This document shows positions 8,761 to 47,542 of a stretch of DNA of 51,349 nt, piece by piece. The position numbers and the translations under genes were made by a program. Source of the DNA: Cystobasidiomycetes sp. EMM_F5 (lineage: Eukaryota); the NCBI GenBank assembly GCA_051047955.1, contig JBPGPT010000011.1, positions 496,001-547,349 of the forward strand. The letters run 5' to 3'. Position 1 is the first letter of the stretch, and each line of letters starts with the position of its first letter. The notes beneath the pieces are model-generated. The model searched no databases, was not told the origin of the DNA, and saw only the letters and a list, made by a program, of their open reading frames with translations.

Positions 8761-10124
8761 ATGGCTGCCACTGCGTCCACGTCTCGGCTACAGGCATCGG
8801 ATCTCTACGACCCAGCGGGTGCTCCCAGTCTGAGCGATGGCTACCCTGGTCAGAGCCGGTCAGGACGGCAGCACGACGAGCGCAGAGAGCGGAGGCCATC
8901 GCCCAGCTACGATGGGCGCAACGGAGACGCTGGTGGAAACGAGAGAAACAACTGGCGACGACTGACGCCCGAGAGAGGCCTGGAGCCGCAGTCGCAGCAG
9001 CCAGACAGCAATGGCAGGGGATACAATGGAAATGCCGGATACAGACGAGGCGGATACAGTAACGGCGCCGGGAATGCCGACTTTTTTGCGCAGTAGGTGT
9101 CCTATCCCACAGAGCTTTTAAGGCGGGCATCGAGCTCATCTCCCGCTCCTTTAGACGCAGAAATCAACGAGATACAGCAGTCGTGTCGATATGGCCAACC
9201 TCGCCCAGAACGCCAGACAATAGTGACAGTGAGGACGACGACAAGCGAAGGAGGAAGAGAAAGAAGGAAAAGAAGGACCGGTCATCCAAACATTCGAAAT
9301 CCTCAAAACGACGACGGTATTCTTCAGCCTCTGAGGCCGAGTCAGACGACGATGAGAGACGCGATCGCTCACGTCGCAAGTCTGAGAGGGACAGTGAACG
9401 AGACAGAGATTCCAAGCGCAGCAGCCGCCGTCACCGAGGAGATGATTCGGCCAGTGATCACGACAAGAGCGCGAAGCGATCTAGACGAAGCGACTCTCCC
9501 CCGTCATCTGCCATGCATCGCGACAGGGTACACAATGAACAAGAAGACGAATGGACAGAGCGACCGTCCTCTTCAATGATCACGGCAGACAAGCATGCTC
9601 CCCCTGCCGGAGAAGGGAGGTTGGCAGTTGCAGCAGCGCCGGCAGACAGGGTCAAGACCTCTTCTACAGCTATGATAAAGTCATCAGAGAGGCCACAAGC
9701 AGATGATTCGGACGACGACGACGACGATGTCGGACCGAAACCTTTCAAGGAGACCGACGAACAACGAGATGCACGCGAGTACGGAGGTGCTCTACTTCGC
9801 GGAGAAGGAGAAGCCATGGCAGCGTACGTTACAGAAGGCAAGCGTATCCCACGTCGTGGTGAAATCGGTCTGGAATCTACGCAAATTGAAAAGTTTGAAA
9901 GTGCGGGGTACGTCATGTCGGGTTCGCGACATCGACGCATGAATGCAGTGCGTATCCGAAAGGAGAATCAAGTCATTTCGGCGGAAGAGAAGCGAGGCAT
10001 TCTCAAACTCCAGAAGGAAGAGAAGAACAAAAAGGAGGCAATGGTCGTCGGGTCTTTCAAGGAATTGTTTGAACATCGCCTGGAGAGCGAAAAACGTAAC
10101 GCAAAGTATCGAGAGACGGATTAG
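8761..10124 (+). CDS. NKAP: NKAP-family (NF-kB-activating protein / DUF926) splicing-associated protein
   Basis: C-terminal YGGALLRGEGEAMAAYVTEGKRIPRRGEIGL...YVMSGSRHRRMNAVRIRKENQVISAEEKR matches the NKAP C-terminal domain. RS/basic middle region; one intron at 9093-9154. Confidence 0.9.
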
Positions 10125-10374
10125 GTGCTGTCGTATCCTTGTAGCCTTTAATGCTGTACTCATCTCACACACTGAGGCAAAGAGATCAAGTTGCGCTTCA
10201 CCTGCGATTCTGTCAGTCGAGTTGTAATCTCGCGAGCAGGAAGCAGCAGCAGGAAAACAATGAATAACAGTATAGACGCAGTTATTGTTTGGAAGAACAC
10301 GGGTAATAGATTGCGAGGACAATATGCGAGTTAAACTAGGCTAACAGCATGGGTAAATAAAAAGCCACACTGGC

Positions 10375-11540
10375 TTAGACAAGAACAGCAAAGCCCATGG
10401 CAACAGCAGCCATGGAGAGACCGGCTACAGTCGTCTTGGAAGCGCTGTTTGGCTTGACTGCAGCGTCACCGACCGCACCAGATCCAGCAGCGGCGGATGA
10501 GCGACCAGTGGTGCCGTTGGAGAATTCCAAAACGAAAGGACCGCCGACGACGTTCGAATCATTGGTGAAACCTGGCGTGCGTGTAATGAGACCGTAAGCT
10601 GCACCTGTAGAGACGTTGGTTCGGGGAATGGTGCATGAACCATTGTTGAATGGAGCAACAGCTTGAGAGAGTCCGCTAAGGAAAGTGCAGTACAGCTGAC
10701 CAGTACCATTGGTCGCGCTAGCAGGGAGGCTAACAGTGATATTGCTACCAATATTGGCATTGGTGGAGGTCAAGTTGGCAGCGGGGTAAGGCTTGAAAGG
10801 AGGAGCTGAGCCATTAGGGCATGACGCGAAGAAGGGAGCTGCCAAGCTGGTCACTGCAACTGGGTTCAGAGGAGTGTCATACTCGACAAAGGGTGTGGCG
10901 CCGTTGATATAGCGAATGACGGAGGAGTGTCTGGCTTCGGCGGTGAGGATCGAGCCGGCAACAGTAAGGTACTGCTTGTTCTGAATGTACTGAGCGGCAC
11001 CAAGGTAGGCGCTGACTCCAACTCCTTCAAGGATCTGCGACACAGCTAAGAACGAGGCTGCATCCGTGCTGTGGCGACAAATTCCGATTAGTGCAGTCCA
11101 TGATGCCGAAACTTGATGTGGATACTCACTATGGGAAGGTGTAATTGCATGCCGATACTGGCGTGGCACCAGCAGCAGACAAAGCCCCAGTCAGCAGAGT
11201 GACGTGGGAAGCCTCATCGGCGGCGACGACCTGGAGCTGAGAGTAGGTCGTGTTGGGGAAGCCAGTGAATGCCGACGCCGAATTAAACTTGGAGAGGGCC
11301 TGAGAGTAGAATGTGGCTGGTAATTTCGAACGGGGGGTGTTGTGTCAGCCACCGTTGTAGAACAATTTTGAACGACCGTCAGTACTTACCTTCTAGGTGC
11401 TCGAGCACGAGCGCGAAATTAAGGATCGCAGAGTCAGGCAACCCAGTCTGGGTCGGTCCTACTTGACGTTTCTCGACCGCCACTGCAGAGACGCCCAGTG
11501 CGCCAAAGACTGCGCTGAGGAGGATGTCACGTCGAACCAT
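10375..11540 (-). CDS. Rds1-like ferritin-fold (Ferritin_2) secreted protein, probably GPI-anchored
   Basis: Signal peptide MVRRDILLSAVFGALGVSAVAVEKR; DSAILNFALVLEHLEATFY, DEASH, LEGVGVSAYLGAA, AGSILTAEARH; hydrophobic C-terminus (AGLSMAAVAMGFAVLV). Two introns. Confidence 0.85.
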
Positions 11541-12481: not shown

Positions 12482-13548
12482 CTACATAACCTTGCCCAAC
12501 TGAGCTGACTTCATGGCTGCGTGGATCTCGGCGTCGGCGCCTTTTTGTAGGGGTAGGAGGGTTCCACGGACGGTTGCGTGGTTGAGAACGCCTCGCGCAA
12601 CTAGCGCATGCTTCAAAGCGACAGTACCTTCCATGTGCGATCCACGGTGGTACACTGCGGCAGTTACTGGCAGGAGTCGGTCGTGCACCTCGCGCGCCTT
12701 TTTGTAGTCTTGCGCCTTGCCAGCGTTGAGCAACTCGTAGAGCGGCTCTGGAGCAATGCCACCGTAACCGACAAGGAAACCATCGACGTCGAACGAACTG
12801 TGGAGGAGGTACTCGTCGTGGCAGGACAGGCAGTAAATATCGGGTCTCTCGCGGCGGATGACTGGGATTTCTCTATCCCAGCGTCTCATGTTGCGGACAC
12901 CATTCTTCATCGCAAAGACACCTGGCTGAGCGAGGATATCAAGCTGAGTCTGCAGGTCGTAAGTTGCCTTGGTGTTGTCTGGGTATTGGAAGAGGATGAG
13001 AGGAAGTCCGGAAGCCTCGTAGATCTCCTTGTAGCGGACTTGGGGAGCGCCGGCCTGGTAGCCGAAACGGAGCCAGCCGTGAGATGGATACAGGAGACCA
13101 GCAGCAGCGCCGGCTTCCTTGGCTCTGCGAGCTTCAATTCCAGCGACGTAGTTACCCTCGCGAGTGATACCGGCAATGATTGGGATTTTGTTATCAACCG
13201 ATTTGACCCATGCTTTGATAGTTTCAACCTGGATAACACTGCTCAGCATGCAATTTTTTCCATATGTCCGTGTACTCTGCTCACCTGCTCGTCTTCAGTG
13301 AGGAAAGTGCCCTCTCCAGCGTGGCCGAGTACGACAAGGCCCTTCACGCCCTCGACAGTTGCCAACCAGGATCCAATGCGCTGGATAGCTTCATAGTCGA
13401 CGGAGCCGTCTTCATTGAAAGGAGTGACCGGAGCGGGAGTGATGCCCGACATGTCAAAGCCGACTCGGCCTCGAGGATTGTGGAAAGTTGTCAGTCCGTT
13501 GGAAGTCGAAGCAGCGCCGTTGCTGTGTCCGTTGGTGAGTCCGACCAT
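12482..13548 (-). CDS. DapA/N-acetylneuraminate-lyase superfamily (class I aldolase) enzyme, substrate unknown
   Basis: GITPAPVTPFNEDGSVD, VLGHAGEG, IPIIAG and Schiff-base Lys in FAMKNG. One intron (gtgagc...atccag) joins ORFs 13243-13548 and 12482-13249. Confidence 0.9.
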
Positions 13549-13727
13549 ATTGTCTGATTTGCGGAGAAGGTGAGTGGTGTGACTAAGTTATCTGGAAGGC
13601 TGCTTGCGCGAGTTGCAACAAGTGTAGGATGGAGATGTGAAGAGTGAAGCTGAGAGGACGTATGAGTGCTAGCTTCTTATAGCTTCAGCAAAGGCCGGCT
13701 ATCCAGGTTCAAGCGGGTGGCGTTGGA

Positions 13728-13878
13728 CGGATGCATGCTTCCGAGGTTGTCTGCAACCCGAGGTGCGTGCGACCATCCCTGGCGGACAATTCAGAACTCG
13801 GCTGCAGGCTTCCGAGCTGCATGTCGGAACCCTACTGACGTGTCTTGGCCCGCTTTGACAGACGGATGCATGCATCCG
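13728..13878. promoter_or_regulatory. Three CGG-N10-CCG inverted-repeat sites (putative Zn2Cys6 binding sites) in a bidirectional promoter
   Basis: 13728-13743 CGGatgcatgcttCCG; 13799-13814 CGGctgcaggcttCCG; 13863-13878 CGGatgcatgcatCCG (perfect palindrome). All are followed by AG and lie between the divergent aldolase and MFS starts. Confidence 0.75.
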
Positions 13879-14070
13879 AGGTCCCCCCCGCAGGAGTCTC
13901 CAAGAAATCTGTCTGTCTGATCCGCGTTGGGAGTTGACAGCTGCCTCCAACTTGCGGGCTTCACCTTCTCTTTCCTTGAGCTGTCACTATTTCAATCTCT
14001 CCTTTCTACGAGTGAAATACCACTTCCGCAAATTGAAACCCATTCTCTTACCTCCGGCGGGGACTCCACC

Positions 14071-15600
14071 ATGTCCGCACTGATGTCCAAGAATATCGAG
14101 CCAGCACCAGGCGGAGAAGTCGCTTCCTTCGCTGCAGAATCCAAGTCGGAGATACACACGCCAGAAGAGAAGTCCTACCATGAGCAATTTGAAGACGTCG
14201 AGCAGAATCGCCTTCAAGGCCAGCCAGCCGGTAAGACCGATCACTTCGGTACCTCCACGAGCCTGTCGCCAGAGGAGAGGAAGCTCGTCCGCAAGCTCGA
14301 TCTATACATCCTGCCGATGCTCTTCTGCATGTATTACATGAACAAGACCGACCAGAACGCCATCGCGAATGCCAGGCTCAATACCCTAGCCAAGGATCTA
14401 GGCTTGGTTGGCAACGACTTCAACGTCTGTGTTTCTATCCTATACGTCGGCTACACTCTCGTCCAGATTCCATCTAATCTTCTCATGTCGTCGGGCAAAG
14501 TACGTCCTTCCACTTGGATGGCCTGCTGGATGGGTGCGTGGGCCATTGTCTCTGGCGTCACTGCAGCTGTCCAGGATTACAAAGGTCTCTTTGCTGTTCG
14601 ATTCCTGCTTGGCTTTGCAGAAGCTCCATTCTATCCAGGCGCCATTTACCTGCTTTCGCTCTTCTACACTCGCCGAGAGATTGCGACTCGTGTCAGCATC
14701 CTCTACTCTGCCAACATCTTCGCAACAGCCTTTGCTGGTCTGATTTCGGCGGCGGTTTTTGGCACACTCGATAAGAAGTACGGTATTGCTGGATGGCGAT
14801 GGCTCTTCATCATTCTCGGCGTTGTCACATTCGTCCTGGCCGCCATCTCATTCTTCATTCTCCCCGACCACCCTGCTACGACTAGATGGCTTACACCAGA
14901 GGAGCGTAAGCTCGCCAAAGAGCGCATGGACCGCGACACCGTCGGCCTGCAACAGAGCATGGGAGCCATAGCTGGCTTCAAGCAGGCGATTGGCGACAAG
15001 CGATTGTACCTGTTTGTGCTCCTGCAGAATCTCCACCTGGCAGCTTGCGGGTTCAACAGCTTCTTCCCAACTGTCGTCCAGACACTCGGATACTCGACTA
15101 CCATTACCCTCGTTCTTACGTGCCCGCCGTACCTGGTTGCTGGTCTGTTTGCAGTCTTCCTTGGCTGGTCGTCTGGACGCCGCAACGAAAAGACATGGCA
15201 CATCACTTTTGGCATGATTGTCGCCGTCATTGGATTCGTCATGGCTGCCTCTTCCCTCCAGACGGGTGTACGCTTCGTGTCCCTCTTCTTCTTTGCGACA
15301 GGTGCCTACTCTGCCAACTCCATCATCATCGGATGGGTCTCTGCGACTTGCGGCCAGACACCAGAAAAGAAGGCAGCGTCTCTGTCCATCATGAACTGCA
15401 TTTCCATGGCGTCCTTCATATACACACCCTATCTCTACCCCGCAAGTGATGGTCCTCGATACCTGATGGCCATGTCTGCCAATGCAGCCTTCTCTTTGGG
15501 TGTCATTATCTGCGCGGTAGCCATGCGCTTCTGGCTGCAAGGCGTCAATCGCAAGATCCGTCAACAAAATCAAGACGTCCGTCTTCTGTACGCGTATTAG
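14071..15600 (+). CDS. MFS transporter, Dal5/Tna1 (allantoate/nicotinate, anion:cation symporter) family, intronless
   Basis: ERKLVRKLDLYILP, QIPSNLLM, RFLLGFAEAPFYPGAIYLLSLFYTRREIATR, GWRWLFII, LPDHPATTRWLT; about 12 hydrophobic segments. ATG at 14071 in a CCACCATG context. Confidence 0.93.
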   Translation: MSALMSKNIEPAPGGEVASFAAESKSEIHTPEEKSYHEQFEDVEQNRLQGQPAGKTDHFGTSTSLSPEERKLVRKLDLYILPMLFCMYYMNKTDQNAIANARLNTLAKDLGLVGNDFNVCVSILYVGYTLVQIPSNLLMSSGKVRPSTWMACWMGAWAIVSGVTAAVQDYKGLFAVRFLLGFAEAPFYPGAIYLLSLFYTRREIATRVSILYSANIFATAFAGLISAAVFGTLDKKYGIAGWRWLFIILGVVTFVLAAISFFILPDHPATTRWLTPEERKLAKERMDRDTVGLQQSMGAIAGFKQAIGDKRLYLFVLLQNLHLAACGFNSFFPTVVQTLGYSTTITLVLTCPPYLVAGLFAVFLGWSSGRRNEKTWHITFGMIVAVIGFVMAASSLQTGVRFVSLFFFATGAYSANSIIIGWVSATCGQTPEKKAASLSIMNCISMASFIYTPYLYPASDGPRYLMAMSANAAFSLGVIICAVAMRFWLQGVNRKIRQQNQDVRLLYAY

Positions 15601-15916
15601 TTGGGTGGTCGCAGTCAGCTGGTTGTCAAAAGTTTTCTGAGGTGGAATGACAATAGGGAAAGCGGCTGTAGTGCAGTAGTCAAATACTGTATCATTAGTC
15701 TCTTCGTGTAACTCTCCAAATCTTGCGCGTTTCGTGTACCAATCTCGCGAGATCTAGTCCAAAAGGCGACTACTATTGCTCCGCCGCGAACAAACTCTTT
15801 GCTCACCTAGGAGACTGCCTTTCTGCTCCGCTCCTTCTCCGGAACACAAAGCATGCTTCGCGCTTCTCTGCTTCACTCAATAAGCAGTATAGCTGTATTG
15901 AGCACATCTGCGCGAA

Positions 15917-18823
15917 ATGGCTTCTGGCTGGTCGGCCGACCTTCTTCTAAACCATAACCGGCAGATCTGTCAGTAGAGGGCGTAGCCAGAGCATCTGCCT
16001 TATGACTGGCATCGTGGTATCGACTAATGGGCTTTCCATTCAGTTCTTGGGCTTCCCGAAGTCGAATCGGAAGACAGCCAAGCTGGACCATCGGGTACAC
16101 CTGATGAGAATGGAGAGCGGGGAGCATTACCTTGTGAGTATTCGGTTCGCTCCCTTTTATTTGCACGGCTGAGCGAAAGAAACTCGCGCTGATTGGAAGT
16201 GTCCGCCCCCACTGCTTCCCCTCCTTGCTCTGTCGGCACATCGGCAGCCGGTATTGACAAGAAATTGAAACGCAGAGTACCAGACTCTGCGCGTCAGCGA
16301 GCTGCTGCTGCTTGTAACAGATGCAAGGCTCGCAAGGTGAGATGCATAAGAAATCTAGGATCCGTTGCTTCGGATCCGTGCGCCGCCTGCGCGCAACTCG
16401 GTGTATCATGCGAGGCATCCGTCAAGAAGCCAAAGCGGAACTATGCTGTTGGCGATCACTTGAGCGCCAGATACAGAGCTCTCGACGAGCTGATCAGAGG
16501 CCTCTGTCCAGGCGAGTCTGTCGATGATCTGTCTGATATTATCGCTCTCGCGTCAAGAAAGGGAATAGGCATTACCGTACAGGAAGAGAAATTTGACAAA
16601 GCCTTCGACCCCTTTCGCCCGCCTCACTCTTCCCAGCCAAACGTACTCACATTCCCATCAAATCACACCTCGCCGTCTGATCCGGCTTTTGCGCTCAAAG
16701 TCCCAGAAGGACGTCTGATCCCTGCAAGCACCGGGGGCTATCATTATGTCGGCCCATCCTCTTCATACATGTTTGCAAATACTATAAGATATCTCGTTGC
16801 CAAATCGCAGATCCATACACCTACCGATAGCTGGTCGGGATTGTGGAGGCAAATCAGGGCTGCAGAATTCACAAGCCCTAACCGAACGACAGCTCTTGAT
16901 GCTCGAATTCAAGGGCACCCTATGACTAAAGCTGCGGATGAAGACAATGCAGATACAAGTCCCGCTGCAATTGCCAGCCCGCAACATAGCGAGAGAAGCG
17001 GCGCCACGATCACAAATTTGCCGGTACCGCACAATCAGTCATGGACCGTCTTTTTGCCAAGCAGAGATGTCGCAGACCGGCTCGTTAAGGCGTTCTTTGC
17101 CCGTGTGCACCCCAACATGCCAATCTTTCATCGCGGAGCCTTCTTCACAAAATACGAGACTCTATGGTCGGCAGCAGCTCTGACTCCGCGCAGTCTAGAT
17201 AACGTTCCGATTCCAGACAGAGGTTGGCTCTGTAGCTTGTTCCTGTGCTTTGTCCACGGTGCACATTCGCTCGAGAGGGATGGCTTAGCCGATGCGTCTG
17301 GCATTCAAGAACGTTATCTCGCCATCATAGTTCGACACGGCCTGCAACGCATGATTATGACGCCGACACTTCAGAACGTACAGGCGCTCATGCTCCTCTC
17401 GCTATATCAGCATAACTCTGGCGAAAGAAATACCGCATGGATGGTATTGGGTCATGCAGCCCGAACGGCAATAGCTCTCGGTATACAACGCGACGGCGAG
17501 AATGGAAATTTTGATCCGGTAGAGCGGAATGTTCGTCGTATGGTGTGGTGGCACCTGCATCTTTTTGAGCAGAATCTTTGTTCAATTCTCGGCAGGCCAA
17601 CGGCCACCAATCTGTTGGAAGTCAGTGCTACGCTACCCGACGAAGAAGTTATCGATGGCAGCGATCTTCCACCGTCGTTTTTGACGTACGCTGTATCGCT
17701 CAGCTGTATAGCTGCGCGCATCAAGCGTTTTATCGGTGCGGTGTCAATCGATTTTGACAAGCCTACCGAGCTCGAGCATGCGTCCCGCTTAGCGCACCAG
17801 ATTGATCAGCAGCTACATCAGTGGCTGGAAGATCTGCCTCCACACCTACAAGTCGATCAATATTTTGCGGTGCCAAAACATCAGCGGGCAGTCCTGCTAC
17901 TTCACGTTCAACACAACTACCTACGGTCATGCCTGGGCAGACCTTATCTACTGTCGTACATCGACTGGCAGTTGAATCCGCAGACGGAGCCTATGCCACC
18001 CTCCATCGCCATGTTTGCCGAGACGTGTCTTACTGGATCCGAAATTGTCATAGAGTATCTCCTCGCGCTTGGCCGTGCCAATTTGCTCGAGGGTGAAGTT
18101 TGGTACGACTTCTTTTACGCTCAGCACGCCGCCTTGATATTGTCTTTGCCATTCCTGCCTCAAGCAGCCAATCCACGGGATGAAACTCCAGCTGCGTACA
18201 CAGAGTCTCCGCAAGAGAAGGCGCGAAAAGCTGCGGTATACAACATTCTCAGCCTTGCCCAATCTACCCGTCTAGCTCCTACATACCGTATTCTCGTTCA
18301 CGTCGCTATACAATTTGCAAGAATAGTCGGCACCTGGCCGGAAAGCGTCGGCGAAGCGGAAGATAATGTCTTTCCCCCGTACAGCTCGACTTCGCCGTTG
18401 TCTCAGACCTCTGCACCGACATTCGCCTTTCACGAGCCATCGACCAACGTGGGCGGTACTCAATCTGCGACCGTGCAGCTGGCAGATGCGACGGCTCAGC
18501 CTGAGAAATCTGCTCAACCGCTCTCCTTCTCAGACTTTACGGGTCCGGATCTCTGGTCTGGCCTTCCTTCTCTGACCTTTCCCAACGATCCTATACAATC
18601 TGATCACGATTTCACGTCCAATACAGCTGGGCAGTCGGCCTTCTCCTTTGACCAGTTCTTCAATTTCGGGACGCATACTGCCAGTTCAGGTATGCAAAGT
18701 CGTCGAGGATCGCTGTCGTTTCCGCTCGTCGGGCAGGGCGATGCATATCAGAATACAGACTTCAATACTGGCCAGTCGAATACCGATACACTCTTGTGGG
18801 ATCTGTTCAACCCGCGAGCGTAG
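15917..18823 (+). CDS. Zn2Cys6 (Gal4-type) transcription factor with fungal TF middle-homology domain
   Basis: CNRCKARKVRC-x11-CAACAQLGVSC binuclear cluster; LVKAFFARVHPNMPIFHRGAF; AWMVLGHAARTAIALGIQRDG...ERNVRRMVWW. The long ORF lacks an early ATG; two predicted 5' introns (gtcagt...cattcag and gtgagt...tggaag) link it in frame to ATG 15917, so the start is less certain. Confidence 0.9.
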
Positions 18824-19565
18824 ATTGCTCCAGTCTGCGCATATCTTTCGTCTGTAACAGTCAGCCAGTCAGTGCGGGATGTTGCTAGGACCCTGTGTTT
18901 GCGACGCAGTACAGTAACAATTGTGTGATGTGTTTCGGCCGTTTGATGGTGTAAATTTGTCGCGTGTCTCCGCATACAGTACGACCGAGTTTTCCCTCGT
19001 TCGGAACGTCTTGCCTTGAAGCGAACGAAAGCTCCAACAGAAAGTGCAAATGAATGGAAATGGCTCTATACCACTATGTTGACCGTTCTTTCATCACAAC
19101 AGAGCTCAAAGTCAACTTCACTCTCGACTTCTTCCGTCGGAAACTGAAGCTTCAAATTGCTTGCTGAAACGTCAAAGCTAAAGCAGCACAAACCGAAGCA
19201 ACGAGCAATGCGTTACTTCTTCTCACTCCTTCCATCAGTTCACTCGTATTTGGACAAGCTTCCATACCCGTTCACCGCAGGACAAGGTCCCAGCTGAAAG
19301 GCTCGGCAAAGCGGGCGAGGTTTCCACTTTTCTGAGGCTGACTTGCTTGGAACCACACCACCTCGACAGCATCGACGACGGGACTCTGCGTACTGGACGT
19401 GGACTCGCTACACTGACGACAGCATCTTTCGACAGCTCCTCACTGCACCGCAAGGTCCCCTTGAACGCCAAAGAGCCCCTTCTTGCACGGTCCCTTTTTG
19501 TCACGGATCTCAGATTCCAACACACTCGTTTTCAGCACACACACACACTCCTCAGACTGCAAACA

Positions 19566-20538
19566 ATGCTACTCAACCTCGTCGTCTCGACCTGCGTCGT
19601 CACTGCAGGTCTGGTGGCCGCACTGAATGGTAGCGAGGGTGGTGCCTTGCAGGGCCGGGGAGCCGTAGATATCCTATCAGAGCGCTCGACGGAGCACATC
19701 GTTGCTGCTCACGAGAAGCGTATGGCTCGTATGGGAGGCAGCCATCACGCACTCGCCAAGCGGGCAAAATGTCCAGCCAGAGGCGTCCAGAAACCAGCAA
19801 CCACTTCATCCTCGACTACTTCAACCAAGGTATTGACTGTCGGAAAGCCAGTCGCAGTCTCCACTTCATCCATCAAGACTACAACTACCACTCACACCAC
19901 AACTTCAAGCAAGCCTCCCCAAAACACGCCGGCGCCACCACAAAACAACAACGGTGGTTCCACACCAGCATCCGGAGGAGCGGCAGCCTTCAACGGCAAC
20001 AACAACAATGCCATCCTGTCCTGGTTCCGTACAAATGCAGGTAGTGATTCGACAAACGGCCGCTCGTGGTGCCAGACCCCGTACAGAGACGACTGGGTAT
20101 GCTTTGCCCCGTCCGTCGGCACAATGCTCAAGGCCTTCAACTGGAACTATGAAGCCGCTGCCAAACACTTCTGCGGTCGTGAAGCTATTGTTACGGACGT
20201 CAAGTAAGTCACTGTTTGTTCCGCACAGACCTGCCGCCACAAGGCTCACGCCCAATTCTTATTTGCGCAATAGGACTGGCAAGAGCATTACTGCATTCAT
20301 CTGTGACGGCTTCGATGACAGATGGCTAAGAACTCCTGCATCCCTCGACCTCACCATCTCAGCTGTAAGCTTCCTCTGCCTATTTTCCGGGTTGCCCCTG
20401 AATTTTGACTGAAATTCAAAAAAGTTCACGCAAATCAAGGGCTCCTTCGACTGGGACAAGAATCACGTCATTACTGGAGCTACATGGCACCTGACAGGAA
20501 ATATCGTCCATAAGGGTACTTTCAAGGCGACTTGGTAA
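19566..20538 (+). CDS. Secreted RlpA-like double-psi beta-barrel (expansin/loosenin-like) protein, paralog 1
   Basis: Signal peptide MLLNLVVSTCVVTAGLVAA, KR site, Thr-rich linker, then SWFRTNAGSDSTNGRSWC...FCGREAIVTD|TGKSITAFICDGFDDRWLRTPASLDLTISA|FTQI. Two introns. Confidence 0.75.
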
Positions 20539-21906: not shown

Positions 21907-24124
21907 TTATTTTTTCACCAACTGCTTCTTCTTCTCCCGTAACACCTCGCTCTCGTTTGACCGCCTATTTTCTCCAAACTTCATCTTGTTGTATAATTTG
22001 CGCTGCTTATTGCTGAGTAGGATGCTCGCTGGATTCGCTTCTTGCGTAGTCAGAGGTACAGTTTCAGTACGCTGTTTCTTCGGAAGTGTATTGGCCTTCT
22101 TCTGAACAGCAAGCTCTATTTGGAATTTGCCGGCAGGAATGCCCAAAGATTCTGCCTCGAGCTCTGCTGCGTGCATGAGACTTTCATCGTCGGGGTCTGC
22201 AGCCGCTGCGATAAGAGCTGGTCGAGAAGGTTGTTCGTGCTCCTCATCATCGACGGTGGCATCGCCGAATCCAGTAAACACCTCTTCCTCGCCCTCCTCA
22301 GCGGCTTCCCTGACGACATTGTCATCCGCTTCCATAGCGTCCGATTCATCATCGCTCGCTGCGCTAACTGCATCTCCACCTGCTTCAGTCGGGATATAGC
22401 CGCCCTGTTCGCGCACCGCGGAGTTGTCAACAAACGGACTCAGATGCGGCGGGAGTGTTGACCCTGGCGCATAAGGTCCGGTAGGGAGGATCTTGCGCAG
22501 ATTGATGCAGTCTACGACCCATTGAGGCTGGATGTACGCTCTTTTGCCTGGATACGTCGGTGTCTGTATAAGTGCAGTTGACGAACTTTGCACTGGCCGA
22601 TCAATGATATGGTGGGTAATCTTCGGATCGTCTATGGTGTATGGAGATCCAGCCCCGAGCACTGCATCCCAGCCGACTTGCCCACCGAATGAGCGAATCA
22701 CAAACTCTAGTGTCGGTCTGGTAACCTCGCGTGATAGGTAAAAGTAGTAATTTTGGAACTGGCCGGTCAGCTCCTCATCGGACTGCTGCTGTGCTGCTTC
22801 TGGTGCATCAGCGTCCAGCGATTGCGGGACATCAGGCCCGCTGACACTCGCAGATTCGGCTTGTACAAGCGCTGTCTCCGCGGCCTCCTCATCCATGTTG
22901 ACTTCTGCTGATATGGAACCGCTTGTGGACGCATTGTTGATCTGCCTGATCTGCTTCTTGATGTCCTTTGTAGTAATCTTCTTGCCATTCTGGACGACAC
23001 CCTTCTCCAACCCGGCTTCAGTGCCAGACTCGCCTTCGATTGTCAATGTCCGACTCGTCTCTTCCAACAACAAGGCACCGATACCAGCTGCTTCGTCATC
23101 TCTGGCCGCGTCCAGCTTGGGCGGATAGACCAGGTTTATATCGCTGTACAGCCTGTAAAAGACAAAGCCCAGCATGGTTTGGTATAGTTCGAGGAAGGTA
23201 AGCATGATGCGGAAGTCTACGTCGGACGGAATCTGCGGGGCGAGTCGTCAGGGATCGTCGGGTCGATGTGTAAACCAACCTTACATTTTGAGTGAACATG
23301 TAGGGAACCAGCCATGTGACAGTTTCTCCCTTGACGCTAGCCTGGAAATAGATGCCTTTGATTGACAGGAAGACTTTGCGCAATGAGCGTGTTCTCATCA
23401 CGTACAGCTGCCACTCGGCAGCAAGTTTTGTACAGTTGGCAACTACGGCTGCTGGGATTTTCTCGCTAGCTGGCAAGTGCGCAAAGAGGATAATGAGGGA
23501 TAGTGCGTCGTCCAGATCACGCAAAGCGTCAGGGAATGACGGGTATCTGTTCGTCATATCTGTCAGCTTAGTCTCGAACCCGAATTATAGATTGTTGCAA
23601 ACCTCTCTTTGATAATGTGGTCTAGCCTGTATTTGGGCTTGTTGTTCTCCTCTAAACTTTTTGCAGCTGACCACTCTCCTCTACCCACAGCTTTCGACAG
23701 CTTCTTTGCAAATGCCTTGTGCTCGCGGAGCTTGTGCAGGACGGGTTCGTGGAGGAGGTATTGGACGTCTTTCACATAGTAGAAGGAAGCGGGAGCAGTT
23801 GATCCCTTGTTGGCCTTCTTGTGGTTGCGCGGTTGTCGCGGGAATATGCCTGTTTATAAATGCATGTCGCATGTGGCGATATACCTTTAGCATGTCTAAT
23901 TCTTCGGTAATATCAGCAAACAATGCACCTTTTAGGATACACAGCCGCCGGAAATCAGAAATAGAGCACTGCAGCTTCTTGATAGCCTGGGTACGGGTCT
24001 TTAATGGCATAATCAGCCCCAGCTCCCATACTGCCGCACCAAATTCTGCACCGACAATGTAATTTTTCGCAGCGCCTGCCTCGCCCTTCTTCTTTTTCGC
24101 CTGTCCACCAGTATTGCGGGCCAT
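21907..24124 (-). CDS. NOP7: Pescadillo/Nop7 ribosome biogenesis protein (BRCT domain)
   Basis: [84 protein letters not shown]...LPPHLSPF. Four introns. Confidence 0.96.
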
Positions 24125-34773: not shown

Positions 34774-35636
34774 CTACGATGCCTTGAATTTGCCTTTGGC
34801 AACGACGTTGCCAGTGAGCTTCCAGGTTGCTCCTTGAATGACGGTATTTTTGTTATTATCGAAAGATCCCTTAATTGCGGTGAAGGCAGCAACTGTGAGG
34901 TCGAGAGACGCAGGAGTCTTGACCCACTTGCTGTCAAAGCCGTCACAGATGAATGCAGTGATGCTCTTGCCCGTGCTGTTGCGTGTGCTGCATCAGTCTG
35001 GTCTATTTTTCCCGTATGTCAAGCTCACCTCGGATCAGTTACAATAGCCTCCCTGCCGCAAAACGCTGTAGCTGCTGCATTGTAATCGTTATTGTATTCT
35101 TTGAGCATTGTCGTGACATCGGGCGCGAAGCAGATCCAGTCATCTTGATACTTTGTCTGACACCACGATTGACCGTTGGTAGAGTCTGATCCAGAGTTTG
35201 TGCGGAACCACGACAAGATTGCGTTGGAGTTTGTACCAGAGAACGCGGTTACGCTGCCTGATGCAGACGATGTACTGCCGTTGGAGGTAGATGAAGAGGA
35301 TGACGAGGAAGTGGAAGTGGATGCTGCAGCGGCAGTAGTAGACGTAGATTTGGTGTTGCTACTGCCAGATGATGAACCGCCTGCATTGTATGCTACCTTG
35401 ACTTGGGTGTTTGAGTTCGTGTTGGCACTACAAGCTCGCCTGTTGTTCCTGGAACGCTTGGTGTGATGACGTCTGTGCTGACCAGCTTCGAAGGAGTCAA
35501 TCTCAGGATTGCGTGCGAGCATGTGCATTTGCGCTTCGATATCGAGATGAGGCCTTGCACCAGCCTGCTGGGCGACCATCAAACCGAAAGCGAAAACGAG
35601 GGATGTCCCGAGGACGGAGGGAACGGATGCCTTCAT
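34774..35636 (-). CDS. Secreted RlpA-like double-psi beta-barrel (expansin/loosenin-like) protein, paralog 2
   Basis: Signal peptide MKASVPSVLGTSLVFAFGLMVAQQAGA, Ser-rich linker, SWFRTNSGSDSTNGQSWC...FCGREAIVTD|TGKSITAFICDGFDSKWVKTPASLDLTVAAFTAI. One intron; clear paralog of 19566-20538. Confidence 0.75.
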
Positions 35637-36471
35637 GATGACGAACGGATGTATAGATGAATGAGTGTATGTACGGAGTCGTGGATGTCTATCGGGCCTG
35701 CCGATAGTTAGTTGAATGAGTTTGCGATGGTGGGTCAGAACAGACGATACGAAGGATTGTTAGCACTTCAGTATTCGCAGGAATGCGATTGAAATTAGCC
35801 GCAGCAAAGGCGCTCAGGCTTTCGTAATGCAAAAGCGCCCTCAACTATGAAAGTGCGGAATGTCACTTGAGCGCGCAGCATTTGCCACCATTCCAGACGC
35901 GGACCTCTCTCTCTCTCTTCAAGGGTCGTTGCCATTCGCCTCACCCGCTTTACCGTCAGCTCTACTGCCTCACTTCCTTATGTCGCACTCGTCACTCCTC
36001 TTTGACAGTCGCTTTCATTCCTGGTCGCTGCTCCGAGTTGGCCAAAGCAAACCGGCTGCCCGACGGCGTCCAATTGATCGAAAGCAATGCAGATGTGAGG
36101 GTAACCAGCAGTTGCGGCGCTTACAATTACAGGAGTAACAGGAAGGTAATAAAACAACAGCTAATATGAGCGGACGCGTTTTGAATGCCTATAGCGCTCT
36201 GACGAATAGCTATCATCTCTGCAGCCCATTACTGAGATCACAAAAGACAGCATAGCCCGAATCAGTGCGGACTGTGCTGTCCTGACTTGAGATGATCCCT
36301 CCATGAAATCCTATCGCTTTGCTGCTCCATACTACGTTACGCGCATGACGCGACGCGCGCACGGACCTCGGACGGATTTGCAAATACCGCTCACGTGCTG
36401 GAATGAGGTAACAGTGGACACGTCTGCGTTCGTTCTTGTCTGACGACGACGAAGTCATGCTACGACGCAGC

Positions 36472-37891: not shown

Positions 37892-39047
37892 ATGTCGGTC
37901 AAAGCTGCGACCGTCGATGTGTCCAAACAGCCGCCCTTCTTAAAGCATGACCCAGTGATGCAGCTCGGAGAGGGCGCTCTGTACCGTCCATCTGACAGTA
38001 CTCTGCACTGTGAGTGTGAAGACGGGCTACTTCAAGTGAAAAGCTAATGCCCAAGTATCATTCAGACCTCGACATTGAAGTCGGTCCTTCGAGCAAGCTA
38101 TTCATCGCACACATCAATTCCACAACAGATGAACTCGTCGGCAACGTTCGCGAAAAGGCCGTTCAAGGGTCTCGTTACGTTACAGCTTTGGCCTTTAGAA
38201 AAGATTATCCAGGAAGCTACCTCTGCACCACAAATACAGGTCTTGCGTATCTCTCTGAAGAGTCAGGGCAGCTCACGCATCTCCCCAACGGCCTTGGACA
38301 GATTATTGCCGAAGATGACAAGGACAAGATGAGGTTCAACGACGCCGCTACAGACAGTAAAGGCAGATTCTACTTTCACTCTATGTCGCGCGACGAGGGC
38401 AAGAAGGCGGGAAAGCTCTACATGTTTGAAAAGGGCATGAAAGGCGTAGAGGACCTCAAAGTGCTCGAGACCGGATTCGCGATAGGGAATGGGCCGGTCA
38501 TTGATGAAGAGAGGAAACGATTCTATTTCAACTTTACCGAGCAGGGGATTGGCTGTGAGTCAGACATCCAGTCCATTCTGTGTTTATCTCAATCTAACCC
38601 ACTATGTCTACTTCAGGGGTATACGACTACGATTCGGAAACCGGAGCAATCAGCAATCGAAGGGAAAACTTCAACAACAATACACGGCGGCCAGCGAGCA
38701 TTGCAGATCCTCTGACAACGATGCTGGGTCCAGGTCATCCAGACGGCTGTACGCTAGACAGTCGTGGCAATCTATATCAAGCAGTTTTTGCTCGCTCATG
38801 CATAGAGCGGTTCACTCCGTCAGGAGAACACGATTTAACAATCAATCTGCCAGCGAGGTGTCCGACATGTCCTGTGTTTGGAGGTAAGAACTTGGATAAG
38901 CTGTTTGTCATTACGGCCAGCGAGGCCCTACAGCCGGGAGAAGCGGAGTTATTGGGAGATCAGGGAGGGAATGTCTTATGCATAAGCCTAAAGGAGCATC
39001 TGCCTAGCGGGGCAAAAGGAATAGTAAAGCATGATTTTGTTGATTAG
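37892..39047 (+). CDS. SMP-30/gluconolactonase/regucalcin-family beta-propeller
   Basis: QLGEGALY, RFNDAATDSKGRFY, IGNGP, HPDGCTLDSRGNLY, RCPTCPVFGGKNLDKLFVITA. Two introns. Confidence 0.9.
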
Positions 39048-42033: not shown

Positions 42034-45000
42034 CTAGTTATCTTCCTGTAACTCAAAATAGGATGAGAACATGGCTTCATGCGATAGTTTGGCTCGTACT
42101 ACGCCATGAACATGCATTAGAAGCTTGGGAAAGCGTCTTGTGAAATAAGACAAGAAGCCAGCCGGTGGCTCGCCCAGACTTTTGCGGACATTATCTGGTA
42201 GATCTTGATAGTGGTGCTTCTTGTTTCGCAAAACCCGCATGAGATCTCGGACGCTGCCTCCGTCGTACTTGCGGTATTTACCGAGATTGTCAACGAGAGC
42301 TCGATCGAGCCCGTTGCGAAGCCAATCTCGGCCAATAATATCCTCGGCGCCATCCTCGAGACAGTAGACAGTGTCGCCTTCCTTTCCTTCTTTGTCCATG
42401 ATCTCGAAACGATCGCTCGCGTCGCATAGAAAGTGAAGAGATTTGGCAGATTGCCAGAAAAAGGGATGTAGCAGAATATCTGCAGCGCAAGGTCTGTAAT
42501 CATGAACTTAGTTTGAAAGAAGTGTTCGGTTCAGTCAGTTGACGAGGTCTTACCTGCTCGACGGATCCGCATGACACATGTATTTGACCAATTCTTGTGC
42601 CTCAAACTTGTTCTCCGTCATGACTGACAGACCATCAAGCCCCATTCTGTCGTTTAGAATGTTGACTTCTCGCTCGTAGCGGGAACCAAAAGGATGTTCT
42701 CCCATTGTCAAAACGAAATAGAAGATGCAGCCAAGCGAGAAGATATCAATACTGCGTGTTAATTTGCGACTTCCAGCCGGAGTCGATAGAGCGATTGTAG
42801 TAGTACTACTAGAGTTTGCAGTCCCGCTGCTGGAATTGGAGACATCGATATGCTCGCGCCCAGGAGATTCGTTATTGACCAAGTCGTCTGCATCCACTTC
42901 GCCACGCAGAACTTCCGGAGCACGGTAGCCGAAACTGCCCGGTGCGGTATGGCCTCCGCCTCGGACAGATTGTAGAAAGCTACTTTCGTCGACGTCCAGT
43001 TTCTTACATAACCCGAAGTCTGAAATGACGACTCGTAAAGACGGCTGAACGCTCGGAGCAGTGGAAGATGAGGAGCGCGATGAAGCCGTAATGAGGATAT
43101 TTTGCGGCTTTAAATCACGGTGGATGATCTTGAGCTTGTGCAGATGCATCAAACCACGCGTGATCTGCTTCAGCGCTTTTACAGGATCAAACGCTACTGC
43201 GAGAGCGGGAAACGAGGCTGGAGAGTCGATGATCTCGTAAAGAGACGCCGAGCATAGCTCCAGCGCGATGTAGAGGAAATTGTCCCTTTGCTCCTGGCAA
43301 AAGTAGCGACTTTACAACCACCAAGGCGTCAGAGAAGGAGCAATGAAGCCAATGATCGATACCTACATGACATTGGAATGATCATCACTCTCTTGCAGCA
43401 ACTTCACCTCATGTGAAGCCACGGTAACGAAATCTTTGAGGAGACGCTTTACCGCCACAGCTCTGCCTTGAAAGGTCCCCTTGAGCACGACAGTTCCGTG
43501 TGATCCGTACCCTGTAAGTAGGAAAGGTGAGATGAGCTAGGGGACATGACCTGCTCTGCATTTGAAGCGCTTACCGATGATTTGCTCAGACACAATGAGG
43601 CTACCAATCCTGCCAGCAATCCCATCTCGCTCATCGACAACGGGCGGAGGAATGTCAACGACTGGAACAGGTGACAATTTCGGGATTATGGCGGCTGCAA
43701 TTGGTGCTGCTTGCCTAGCTTGTACACCATCGATAGCTTCGTTGCTGGCAACAGCATCTGTTGCCCGCTGACCTGGTCGTTTCCCGCGTTTCCGCCTTCG
43801 ACCCTTCTTCTTGTTGCCGGTCTTTACAACGTCGTCATCCTCTCCGTCACTGTCAAGATCGACAGCGCTGTCCACCATAGGGGGCGTAACGCTGAGAGCT
43901 TGGTTGTCTGTTTCATTGTTCTCGTTGATTTCCTCGAAAGGAGGTAGGGCGGGAAGGGCTTTGTCGATTGAAGGAGAGTAGACATGACGACTTGTGCCAT
44001 CGCTTGCGATCAGCGAAGAGGACGGTAAGTCCTTCACACTGATATGCATGGGGATACTTTCTGTACTTGCAGAGGAAGAACCCTCCGAAGGCGGAGGTTC
44101 GGCCTTTTCTACTTTTGACACAGATACAGATTCATACCGAATTCTAGGCTCGCGGGACAGGCGTTGTCGCTTGCGCAAGATGCGTCTGAAGTACAAGAAC
44201 ACGCATGCCATAGTGACAGCAAGGGTTGCTGTCTGCAACAGATACCGAAAGTCCAGACTCTTCCCAAGTCGCAACTGTTTCGAATCTTTCGTGCCATCTG
44301 GTAGCGCAGGGACCGCAGGCTTTGAATGTGTCTCGTCCGATGATGGTCGAGATGGACCAGCGTCAATACCCAGCGGTTCAGGTTTTGGATCGATTGTCCT
44401 TCCAGAGTCCAGAGGTTCTTCAATCTTGTGTACTCCTAGTATACCATGGACATGAGCGATTGCAGAGTCATCACTTTGGTCTACGCTGCCACTGCCGGGT
44501 ACAGCAGGGTTTGCGAAAGCGATGAGGGGGTAATGGTCGTTGCTCATAGCAAAGAACTGGTCTTCTCCTACTCTTGCGCTACTGTTAATGTTGTATGTGG
44601 GTATGCGACCCACGTAGGTTGTGGCAGGCACATGCCGCAGTGCACTGATGCTTGAATGTAGAATCTGAGTAGGGTGTACCACAACAACAGGTTGGCTTCG
44701 AGGGTGTGGCCTGTCCGAAGTTGACCTGGTGCGACCATCGTCCGTGAATGACGATGCGGGATTGCTTTGAGCCGCGGAAGCAGGATGTACAATGTCAAAC
44801 ACAGAAACAACGGGATGAGAAAAGTGATTTGACCACTGTAAGCCATCGCGATCACTTTCAAAGCAGACGAGCGATCCATCATGCATTGGCTGTATGTATC
44901 GGCCATCAAGAGATAGCGACGTGGGTGAATCAGAATAGGTGGAAGAGGAATGCGGCGCTGATGGATTTGCCAGGGTTGACGGGCCGTAGGCTGTATAAGA

Positions 45001-46026
45001 AAGAGTTTGAAGCAGACCATGCTTCTTGGAGTATATTGATAAGTGGTAGTCTGTCCTGCCGATGTATAGCAGATGCCACGGACGGTGCTCAATACCTTCG
45101 CCGTCGTCCGTATGGATGGTCGAAGAAGCTGCTGGAGACGTGGTACGCGTCTGAGGCCACTCGCACCATCCGGCTTCTGGACCGAATTCGCCGACCAATT
45201 TCCCGCTAGAAATGTCGACACCGACGAGCTTGGTCTCCTTGCGTCCCAAGAACAGTTTGCCATCTCCTGACGAGCCCGAGGTTGCGTTGGCCTCGGTGCT
45301 CGAGTGCACGTCGGTTGGAAAAGTAAATGGCGAAAGGTCGACTAGCTGCGTGACTGATAGAGGCAGTCGCTGCATTTGGCCTGTCGACTTGTGATACATG
45401 TAGATGTCACCGCCGGAATGAGGCTCGATGACATATACTTCGTCGTCGGTGTAGTGCTCGCTGCTGTCATCACCGGCGCCAGAGGTGCTGCTACTTCGGA
45501 CCAGAGGACTGCGTACGATATCGTCCGTCTGTGCAGACTCATTCTCGTCGTGCAGTGACCACACCCACAGACCAGTATCTCGTCGGATTGCATGAATTGC
45601 ACCGTCGACAGTCACGACGAGTGCAATCTCGGCGAGCTCGTCGTGGCTTTCGAGGTCGACTGAGACTATTCTGCCATTGTCGTGAATGTCATTGTCAGTA
45701 TTGCTGCCTACGCTTTTGACTGCCAAAGTGCTGCCGCTCCGTCGACTGATTGCCGGTCCAGCGTTGAAGCGATAACGGCGCAGAGCATCAGGCAGCCGCT
45801 CGATACTCTCACTGCGATGGTCATGCCTCGACTGCTGAGCTGGCTGGCTGCGAGCAATACCCGCTGATGCTGCGACTTCTGGCGGGGGTCCAATGTATCG
45901 CGGACTGGCTGCGACCAGCGTGATTATCGATATCACAGCCAGCAGCAGTGACAGCCTTCTGCTGCTGCTGCTGCTGCTATAGCCTGCCCGTCGTCGCGCA
46001 GCTTCAGCCTCGCTGCGACCATTCAT
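42034..46026 (-). CDS. IRE1: Ire1 ER-stress sensor kinase/endoribonuclease
   Basis: Signal peptide, luminal domain (VVTVDGAIHAIRRDTG, LYIGRTDY), TM segment, GYGSHGTVV...VAVKRLL, HRDLKPQNIL, ISDFGLCKKL, KEN domain SVRDLMRVLRNKKHHYQDL...YFTRRFPKLL. Three introns. Confidence 0.97.
45959..45978. repeat. (CTG)n microsatellite encoding poly-Ser ahead of the Ire1 signal peptide
   Basis: ctgctgctgctgctgctgct. Confidence 0.85.
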
Positions 46027-46419
46027 GGGGTTGCATTATTGTATGGTTTAAAGAATCAGAAACATCTGAAATATTCAGGCAGTCAATGAATTCTGAGGCC
46101 ATTCCATTGCTCAATGTTTAAGTTGTGCTCCACTTATTGCGATATCGATACATTCACTGCCCGCTTTCTCGACGCGTTTCGGGTTTGAAATGAAGCGTCT
46201 GAGCTGGGTGATCTGATTGGATGCTAGCTAGGCTGATGGGCTGCCTGAGCAGCAGTCTGACTATCGAGCATCATCTAATATGCTCGCATTCGTTGTTATC
46301 TCTCATCTCGTCAAGTCTTGTCGCGATTCCAACGTCGAAATGTCCTTTGATCCGCTCCAATCCAAACATACATACATATACAGCAACGCTCCTCTGACCC
46401 GACGACGACCACTGCAGCC

Positions 46420-47542
46420 ATGCCGTTCAGCTTTGGGAGCTTCGACTCCATCTGCGAGACGGCGGCACTCATTCCGTGCGCCATGCTCGGGACGAATGGC
46501 CTCTCCCCGACGTGCTACGCCCGCAACGTCGAAATCAACACGACCATCCTGTTCCAGCCAGCGACACTCATCGTCCACATCGCGGCACTCGTAATGACGG
46601 CAATCATGGTCCTCCACATCACGTCAAAGTATACCGCCGTCGGGAGAAAGGAAATGGTCTTCTTCTTTTATCTGTACGCCGTGCACGAGCTGCTCGGCAT
46701 ATTCCTCGATACTGCAATCATACCACTCAACAGCCAAGTGTACCCGTGGTTTGCGGCAGTCCATACCGGAGTAATGTGCGCACTTTGCTGGTCACTCATG
46801 CTCAACGGCTTTGTCGGGTTTCAGTTTGCAGAGGACGGTACTCCGCTCAGTCTATGGGTGAGTCGTGTCTTCTGTCATGTGTTTCGATCTCGCAAACTGA
46901 CTATTCCCTCAGACCCTCCGCCTCACTTCCCTCGTCGTTTTCCTGGTGACCGGCTTCATCGCGATCGGGACATTCAAAAACATTGCAGGCCTCTCGAGCA
47001 CAAAGCCAGTCGTGCTGTGGATTGCCTACTACATATTCAACGCCGCGTGCATCGTCCTATACATCATCTCTCAACTCGTCTTGGTCATTCGCACCCTCGA
47101 CGACCGGTGGCCAATTGGTGCCATCCTGTTTGGCGTTGGTTTCTTTGCTGCTGGTCAGGTACTCGTGTACGGGTTCAGCGTGCAGATATGCAATGCCATC
47201 AAGCACTACCTCGATGGCCTCTTCTTTGGCTCGCTATGTACCCTGCTGGCAGTCATGATGGTCTACAAGTATTACGACATGATTACAAAGGAGGACTTGG
47301 AGTTCTCGGTCGGGTCCAAGCAGGCCGTATGGGAAGTCAAGGAGCCATTACTAGGTAACGGAGCGCCCTCGGCTTTTGCTGGGTTCGACGACGTCAATAG
47401 TACATACTCGCACCCTTCGGCTGCTGGTCAGCCAGGTGCATACCATCACGCTCCTCCCATGCCAAGCTATTACAGCAATCATTCGGGCTACTCCAATTCA
47501 AACAGTGTTGGCGGACAAATGTATCCTCCGTCAAAGTATTGA
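46420..47542 (+). CDS. CHS7: Chs7 chitin synthase export chaperone
   Basis: [16 protein letters not shown]...[53 protein letters not shown]...[21 protein letters not shown]. One intron. Confidence 0.96.

Follow-up and report, generated by a model that had tools for sequence, protein, structure and literature searches.

An atypical DapA-fold enzyme, an ACS-type transporter and a Zn2Cys6 regulator in Cystobasidiomycetes sp. EMM_F5 form a candidate one-enzyme catabolic module

We analyzed a 51,349-nt stretch of DNA from Cystobasidiomycetes sp. EMM_F5 (assembly GCA_051047955.1, contig JBPGPT010000011.1, positions 496,001 to 547,349 of the forward strand; hereafter the window, whose own numbering is used throughout). 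It contains three neighboring genes that encode an enzyme of the DapA fold, an ACS-type transporter of the major facilitator superfamily (MFS) and a Zn2Cys6 regulator. This three-gene layout, first described in a first-pass annotation of the window, is confirmed, and its features are listed below.

12482..13228, minus strand: enzyme exon 2, with F168 at the catalytic-Tyr position, Schiff-base K196, the SCHDE motif and the stop codon (gene model, Pfam, alignment)
13229..13284, minus strand: intron of the enzyme gene, GT-AG, 56 bp (gene model; protein on record identical)
13285..13548, minus strand: enzyme exon 1, with the GHAGE motif and H76 (gene model, Pfam, alignment)
13549..14070, no strand: divergent promoter, 522 bp (ATG-to-ATG gap)
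13728..13743, no strand: CGG-N10-CCG site 1 (pattern search)
13799..13814, no strand: CGG-N10-CCG site 2 (pattern search)
13863..13878, no strand: CGG-N10-CCG site 3, a perfect palindrome (pattern search)
14071..15600, plus strand: ACS-type MFS transporter, 509 aa, intronless (open reading frame, PF07690)
15917..18823, plus strand: Zn2Cys6 regulator, 5' exons modelled (sequence model, Pfam)

The enzyme open reading frame (ORF) runs on the minus strand from the ATG at 13548 to the stop at 12482 with a single intron and encodes 336 aa; an NCBI record with the identical 336-aa sequence (P0187) matches the spliced model. The gap between the two ATGs agrees with the first-pass annotation, which had placed the enzyme and transporter genes head-to-head across 522 bp. 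It had also put a Gal4-type transcription factor about 320 bp after the transporter stop; the modelled ATG of the regulator gene, at 15917, lies 316 bp past that stop, and the product carries the expected Zn_clus and Fungal_trans domains. The 5' end of the regulator gene is a sequence-only model with two predicted introns (15969-16043, and 16134-16199 or 16134-16247), and the resulting open model of 905 or 921 aa ends at 18823.

PF00701 matches both enzyme exons (57.5 and 32.6 bits; cut-off 22.1), and K196 aligns with the Schiff-base lysine of dihydrodipicolinate synthase (DHDPS). This lysine is invariant in 43/43 aligned sequences, is one of four invariant columns, and is kept in sister subfamilies at 27-38% identity. 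The enzyme has the TIM-barrel fold and the Schiff-base lysine in common with NAL, DHDPS, HOGA and KDG dehydratase. The Thr/Ser motif, the Tyr and an Arg serve catalysis in DHDPS. Unlike its NAL/DHDPS relatives, the enzyme has GHAGE (H76-A77) in place of G(T/S)(T/S)GE (GTTGE-type in the DHDPS structures), Phe (F168) for the catalytic Tyr, Asn (N173) for the DHDPS Arg, and SCHDE for SGDD. The structural reading comes from an alignment-based model with a pLDDT of 93 (the single-sequence fold gave 35.5), a TIM barrel with a helical C-terminal part that resembles NAL, DHDPS, HOGA and related barrels to much the same degree (17-29% identity, TM ~0.8, Z 29-37, top 36.8). We found no solved structure of the subfamily, and the ESM Atlas returned generic DHDPS clusters only.

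The enzyme belongs to a tight subfamily, in which identities run from 77 to 89% across the top 120 of 2602 matches; proteins from yeasts to enterobacteria and Acinetobacter are 74-85% identical, and the next full-length subfamilies are at <=39% identity. The Pantoea orthologue (79% identical) falls below the cut-off of all seven NCBIfam models that it touches. TIGR00674 (DHDPS) is its best model, yet it scores 130.7 bits against a cut-off of 206.15, and the NAL, KDG dehydratase, HpaI and archaeal KDG aldolase models give 37-80 bits against cut-offs of 278-397. Because the catalytic motifs are changed and all NCBIfam cut-offs are missed, we concluded from its sequence that the enzyme is built on the DapA scaffold without being a DHDPS. 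This bears out the earlier description of it as an atypical DapA-family member. Other PF00701 genes of the same genome, on contigs C112 and C232, may encode galacturonate-type aldolases.

The best NCBIfam model for the transporter is TIGR00893 (ACS, D-galactonate transporter) at E 6e-52, with 176.8 bits that stay below the cut-off of 395, and its relatives carry the database names tartrate, vitamin H or pantothenate transporter. The regulator matches PF00172 (Zn_clus, 23.1 bits) and PF04082 (Fungal_trans, middle homology, 69.8 bits), both above cut-off; its single PDB match, Ppr1, is weak (E 0.23), and its relatives are auto-labelled 'proline utilization trans-activator'. Fungal catabolic clusters such as prn/PUT (proline), hxn (nicotinate) and gaa (galacturonate) combine a pathway-specific zinc regulator, a linked permease and a divergent promoter, as here; unlike those clusters, this trio has one enzyme only.

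The trio is conserved in other fungi. By consecutive accessions or locus tags it is present in Cryptococcus neoformans H99 (AFR97379/80/81), Meredithblackwellia eburnea (KAM0755785/86/87) and Kwoniella sp. B9012 (V866_005722/23/24), and the enzyme gene adjoins a transporter gene in the ascomycete Zopfia and in Dendrothele, K. heveanensis and Stygiomarasmius. Among 21 metagenome loci fetched by regulator alignment, eight carry the enzyme and four also the orthologous transporter, with the gene order changed; near-copies reduce the eight and four to five and three distinct arrangements, and many of the loci are too short to tell. The H99 genes, matched by product name and length, are CNAG_04834, CNAG_04835 and CNAG_04836 (FZC10). 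Their products are 69% (transporter, AFR97381), 85% (enzyme) and 47% (regulator, AFR97379) identical to ours; the gene order differs in that the accession series places the regulator beside the enzyme, and the annotation is generic only. Linkage in other genomes, which the first-pass annotation had set as a test of its reading, was thus found in C. neoformans, Kwoniella, Meredithblackwellia and metagenome loci.

Related arrangements were seen as well. At metagenome loci L093 (10094-11074) and L098 (10788-11888), a long-branch fungal enzyme paralogue (63-65%) adjoins a regulator paralogue; at L098 an NAD-epimerase-like gene and an ACS carrier of another kind are present as well. Stygiomarasmius has two near-adjacent enzyme copies (VKT23_006471 and 006473; P0006, P0308) beside the transporter gene. 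Further regulator paralogues (34-39%) at L097, L103, L101 and L102 stand either beside an MFS gene together with an intradiol dioxygenase gene or beside an isocitrate/isopropylmalate-type dehydrogenase gene; some of these loci have similar CGG-N10-CCG sites, which would fit a family of small-acid regulons.

Gal4 sites have an N11 spacing. The 522-bp promoter contains three CGG-N10-CCG sites (at 13728, 13799 and 13863) and no such pair at any other spacing from 3 to 13. Three N10 sites occurred in 0/5000 dinucleotide shuffles and three sites of any single spacing from 3 to 13 in 4/5000, in agreement with the triplicated zinc-cluster-type sites reported at first. The whole window holds seven CGG-N10-CCG sites where 9.6 are expected, so that only their clustering in the promoter is unusual. 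A site with the core TGCATGC also lies in the divergent promoter of metagenome loci L084 (three copies) and L085/L086 (two copies); the 16-bp site recurs in 2/3 distinct metagenomic trios. It is further found upstream of the regulator gene at L083, L100, L097 and L090. Twelve hand-picked sites align to CGGATGCATGCTTCCG, and a pattern derived from these sites matches six places in the 18.3-Mb genome, three of them in this promoter by construction and three elsewhere; a reversed control pattern gave 2+2 matches in the same genome. The three further matches reveal no clear extra regulon member, and two are inside ORFs. The third lies ~330 bp upstream of a GAPDH-like ORF (L198:2659-4051; G000, contig C173), which is a possible target or a chance match. 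CGG(N10)CCG is the site spacing of Put3, as given in the available part of PMC5729217, and the likeness to the Put3/proline regulon is one of site spacing. No proline genes were seen in the fungal neighborhoods scanned.

We also compared the bacterial neighborhoods of the enzyme gene, as the first-pass annotation had proposed. The first scan covered the best 80 of 370 genome loci, many of them close kin. Genes linked to the enzyme gene encode aromatic-acid-type MFS carriers (62 loci), porins (25 and 16), LacI regulators (19), FAH-family proteins (15) and Dcu C4-dicarboxylate carriers (11); a neighbor cluster (72/80) in which LysR genes stand together with antisense frames was left out of these counts. 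TctC, TAXI-TRAP, Nramp-like and DcaP carriers are also present at bacterial loci. No further enzyme family occurs more than three times among 113 scanned proteins (109/256 candidate neighbors plus four cluster representatives). A second scan, which added Arthrobacter and Rhodoplanes and in which 35 new loci of 80 were examined, gave LacI 19, Nramp-like 13, MFS 12 and IclR 5. In the nine annotated plasmid loci read out of 56 matches, a LacI or LysR gene is adjacent in 9/9 and a transporter gene lies directly downstream in 8/9. On the Microvirga plasmid (L203:6989-14903) the enzyme gene is followed instead by genes for hydantoinase/oxoprolinase A and B, FAH and TctC, an arrangement that may supply the pathway with a cyclic precursor. 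The At plasmid of Agrobacterium fabrum C58 has the order LacI-enzyme-MFS (L199:7804-11507), and Agrobacterium accounts for 18/56 plasmid matches. The module includes a chemoreceptor gene in Dickeya, Serratia and Symbiopectobacterium (L033, L031, L036, L040); the ligand domain of this receptor could reveal the substrate.

The bacterial modules (Klebsiella, Pantoea, Acinetobacter, Burkholderia, Agrobacterium pAt, Arthrobacter) therefore show the same regulator-enzyme-importer logic around an enzyme that is 58-79% identical, but their regulators are LysR, LacI or IclR proteins and their carriers differ from the fungal one. The fungal carrier is unrelated to the MFS of the bacterial modules, the best BLAST match being E 0.001 over 41 aa.

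The origin of the enzyme was examined in two trees, a quick one with 95 rows and a careful one with 40 rows that left out 11 named fungal, 3 metagenome, 6 outgroup and 35 bacterial rows; the root was set on three proteobacteria, and the outgroup branches are very long. In both trees the fungi form a single clade (98/97) joined to enterobacteria (99/96), with seven basidiomycete rows (100/98) nested among ascomycete rows. The enzyme of this locus groups with Cryptococcus and Kwoniella B9012 (100/99) and not with Meredithblackwellia, which we take to be its closer kin by taxonomy, and the Saitozyma enzyme pairs with that of Pyricularia (94/94). Such a topology suggests a single acquisition from bacteria, with subsequent transfers among fungi; paralogy with loss may also lie behind the pattern.

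Taken together, it is very likely that the three genes form an inducible one-enzyme catabolic module. We also regard it as reasonably probable, as a reading of the whole locus, that the module takes up a small keto or carboxylic acid on induction and converts it by Schiff-base cleavage or hydrolysis to pyruvate and/or oxaloacetate; for the chemistry alone the chances are about even. A small carboxylic acid, probably keto or masked-keto and di- or tricarboxylic, would enter through the ACS-type carrier acting as a proton symporter. The regulator, activated by the acid or its product, would bind the three CGG-N10-CCG sites and turn on both divergent genes, importer and enzyme. The enzyme would hold the substrate carbonyl as a Schiff base on K196, with H76, H138 and H225 replacing the usual Thr/Tyr relay, and would release core metabolites in one step, most likely pyruvate and/or oxaloacetate. 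In this scheme the gene structure, the fold, the residue changes and the conservation of linkage and site are observed, and the direction of transport, the binding of the regulator, the chemistry and the products are inferred. Four regulator families and several carrier families surround one enzyme, which argues for an imported carboxylate as the substrate and for one step to core metabolism, and since no second enzyme is constant, that one step probably reaches core metabolism. For the same reason the module is likely self-contained. The sense-import-cleave reading of the first-pass annotation is thus supported by the fungal linkage, the partly conserved promoter site and the bacterial regulator-enzyme-importer layout. 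It had not recognized the trio as a described pathway, and our literature search, whose scope left out most subscription papers, likewise turned up no account of either the trio or the enzyme; passages of PMC10960036, PMC4279801 and PMC9162365 deal with other genes.

Two classes of compound are the leading substrate candidates. One comprises aldol-type adducts of pyruvate, oxaloacetate or glyoxylate; the other, dicarboxylates with a 2,4-dioxo or gamma-pyrone structure. An acetopyruvate-DHDPS entry among the structure matches shows a 2,4-dioxo acid in the DapA fold, and the FAH proteins linked in bacteria have relatives among 2,4-diketo-acid hydrolases and decarboxylases, none of them clearly the nearest. 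A more specific proposal is a new DapA-fold reaction, the histidine-based hydrolysis of a plant gamma-pyrone or 2,4-dioxo dicarboxylate of the chelidonate type to pyruvate plus oxaloacetate, together with a single fungal uptake of the gene from enterobacteria-like donors, a regulon rebuilt from fungal parts, and passage of the cassette between basidiomycete subphyla. This joint proposal is speculative and unlikely as a whole; it would account for the presence of FAH and Dcu genes at some loci only and for carriers of the aromatic-acid type. Our literature search found no paper on microbial chelidonate catabolism, so that chelidonate enters as a suggestion only.

Several observations weigh against the uptake-and-cleavage reading. 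The Thr-Thr motif binds the pyruvate carboxylate in DapA relatives, and its loss weakens the case for a pyruvate-type substrate. The FAH (15/80) and Dcu (11/80) genes occur mostly in related enterobacteria, so that the guess at the products rests on one lineage. The third metagenomic trio (L087/L089) lacks the site in its promoter; the site is not evident at L092/L093 and L098, and none lies upstream of this genome's own regulator gene. In C. neoformans, the available part of PMC3990503 places 4/4 H99 PF00701 genes in a cluster with higher expression on pigeon guano; the supplement of PMC11526942 counts four such genes in H99, and this signal, covering all the DapA-like genes, is unspecific.

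The same guano expression could favor a different reading, in which the enzyme acts as a deaminase or imine hydrolase on a cyclic imine or on the adduct of an amine with a keto acid, and the module supplies nitrogen no less than carbon. Pyrroline-hydroxy-carboxylate deaminase, which has the same fold and would be the model for such an activity, is among the structure matches (4mpq, Z 31.0), the Microvirga locus adds hydantoinase/oxoprolinase genes, and the regulator relatives bear the proline label. However, the 4mpq match is no better than those of other family members, oxoprolinase is present at 1/9 annotated loci, and the linked carriers are organic-acid types (TctC, Dcu, DcaP, aromatic acid symporter), which makes this reading unlikely. 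The lost catalytic Tyr and Thr motif, with three conserved histidines and Cys/Asp/Glu near the barrel mouth, could instead indicate a non-aldolase chemistry (a metal- or histidine-based hydrolase, an isomerase or a decarboxylase) in which the lysine serves for binding only; this is improbable, as K196 is among the few invariant columns and persists in the distant sister subfamilies.

It is more doubtful still that the enzyme serves to eliminate an acid that is reactive or inhibitory, without growth benefit, as in detoxification or metabolite repair. The single enzyme and the patchy distribution fit this view, as does the detection of the C. neoformans enzyme in 4/4 DMEM pellets versus 0/4 YNB pellets (supplement of PMC11526942), but a paralogue drops in YNB too, so that the DMEM signal is unspecific, and the bacterial porins and binding-protein importers bring the compound in. 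A true DHDPS is very improbable, and so is a small cluster for biosynthesis that includes an exporter: database names and TIGR00674 as the best model point that way, while the cut-off missed by the Pantoea orthologue, the changed catalytic motif and the lack of aspartate-pathway or biosynthetic neighbors in the bacterial loci scanned speak against it.

The flanks of the locus (9063-11190, 21907-23247, 38020-38715 and 42550-47542 of the window) resemble ordinary host genes, with Pfam matches to NKAP C-terminal, ferritin-like and SMP-30 domains and likenesses that we take to be to pescadillo, IRE1 and Chs7. Two related Ser/Thr-rich ORFs at 19182-20207 (plus strand) and 35025-35759 (minus strand) look secreted and have a common C-terminal stretch (WFRTN...WCQT...DDW); the exons scanned gave no Pfam match.

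The architecture is of a known kind, and the enzyme subfamily and its substrate are uncharacterized as far as the literature search reached. New here are the fungal trio, its promoter site and the link to C. neoformans knockouts. According to the available part of PMC11526942, validated deletions of CNAG_04834, CNAG_04835 and CNAG_04836 have mean mouse fitness values of 0.38, 0.42 and 0.006 with no fitness defect, and the three genes are absent from the co-fitness clusters given there. With validated deletions of all three genes at hand the question is cheap to test, and the 16-bp promoter site could serve as a reporter for finding the inducer. An answer would set right many fungal gene annotations that now read 'dihydrodipicolinate synthase' and would provide FZC10, so far an orphan regulator, with a candidate site and candidate targets. 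The module points to a widespread, as yet unnamed nutrient of plant-associated bacteria, moulds and yeasts, and it suggests that a classic enzyme fold hosts new chemistry.

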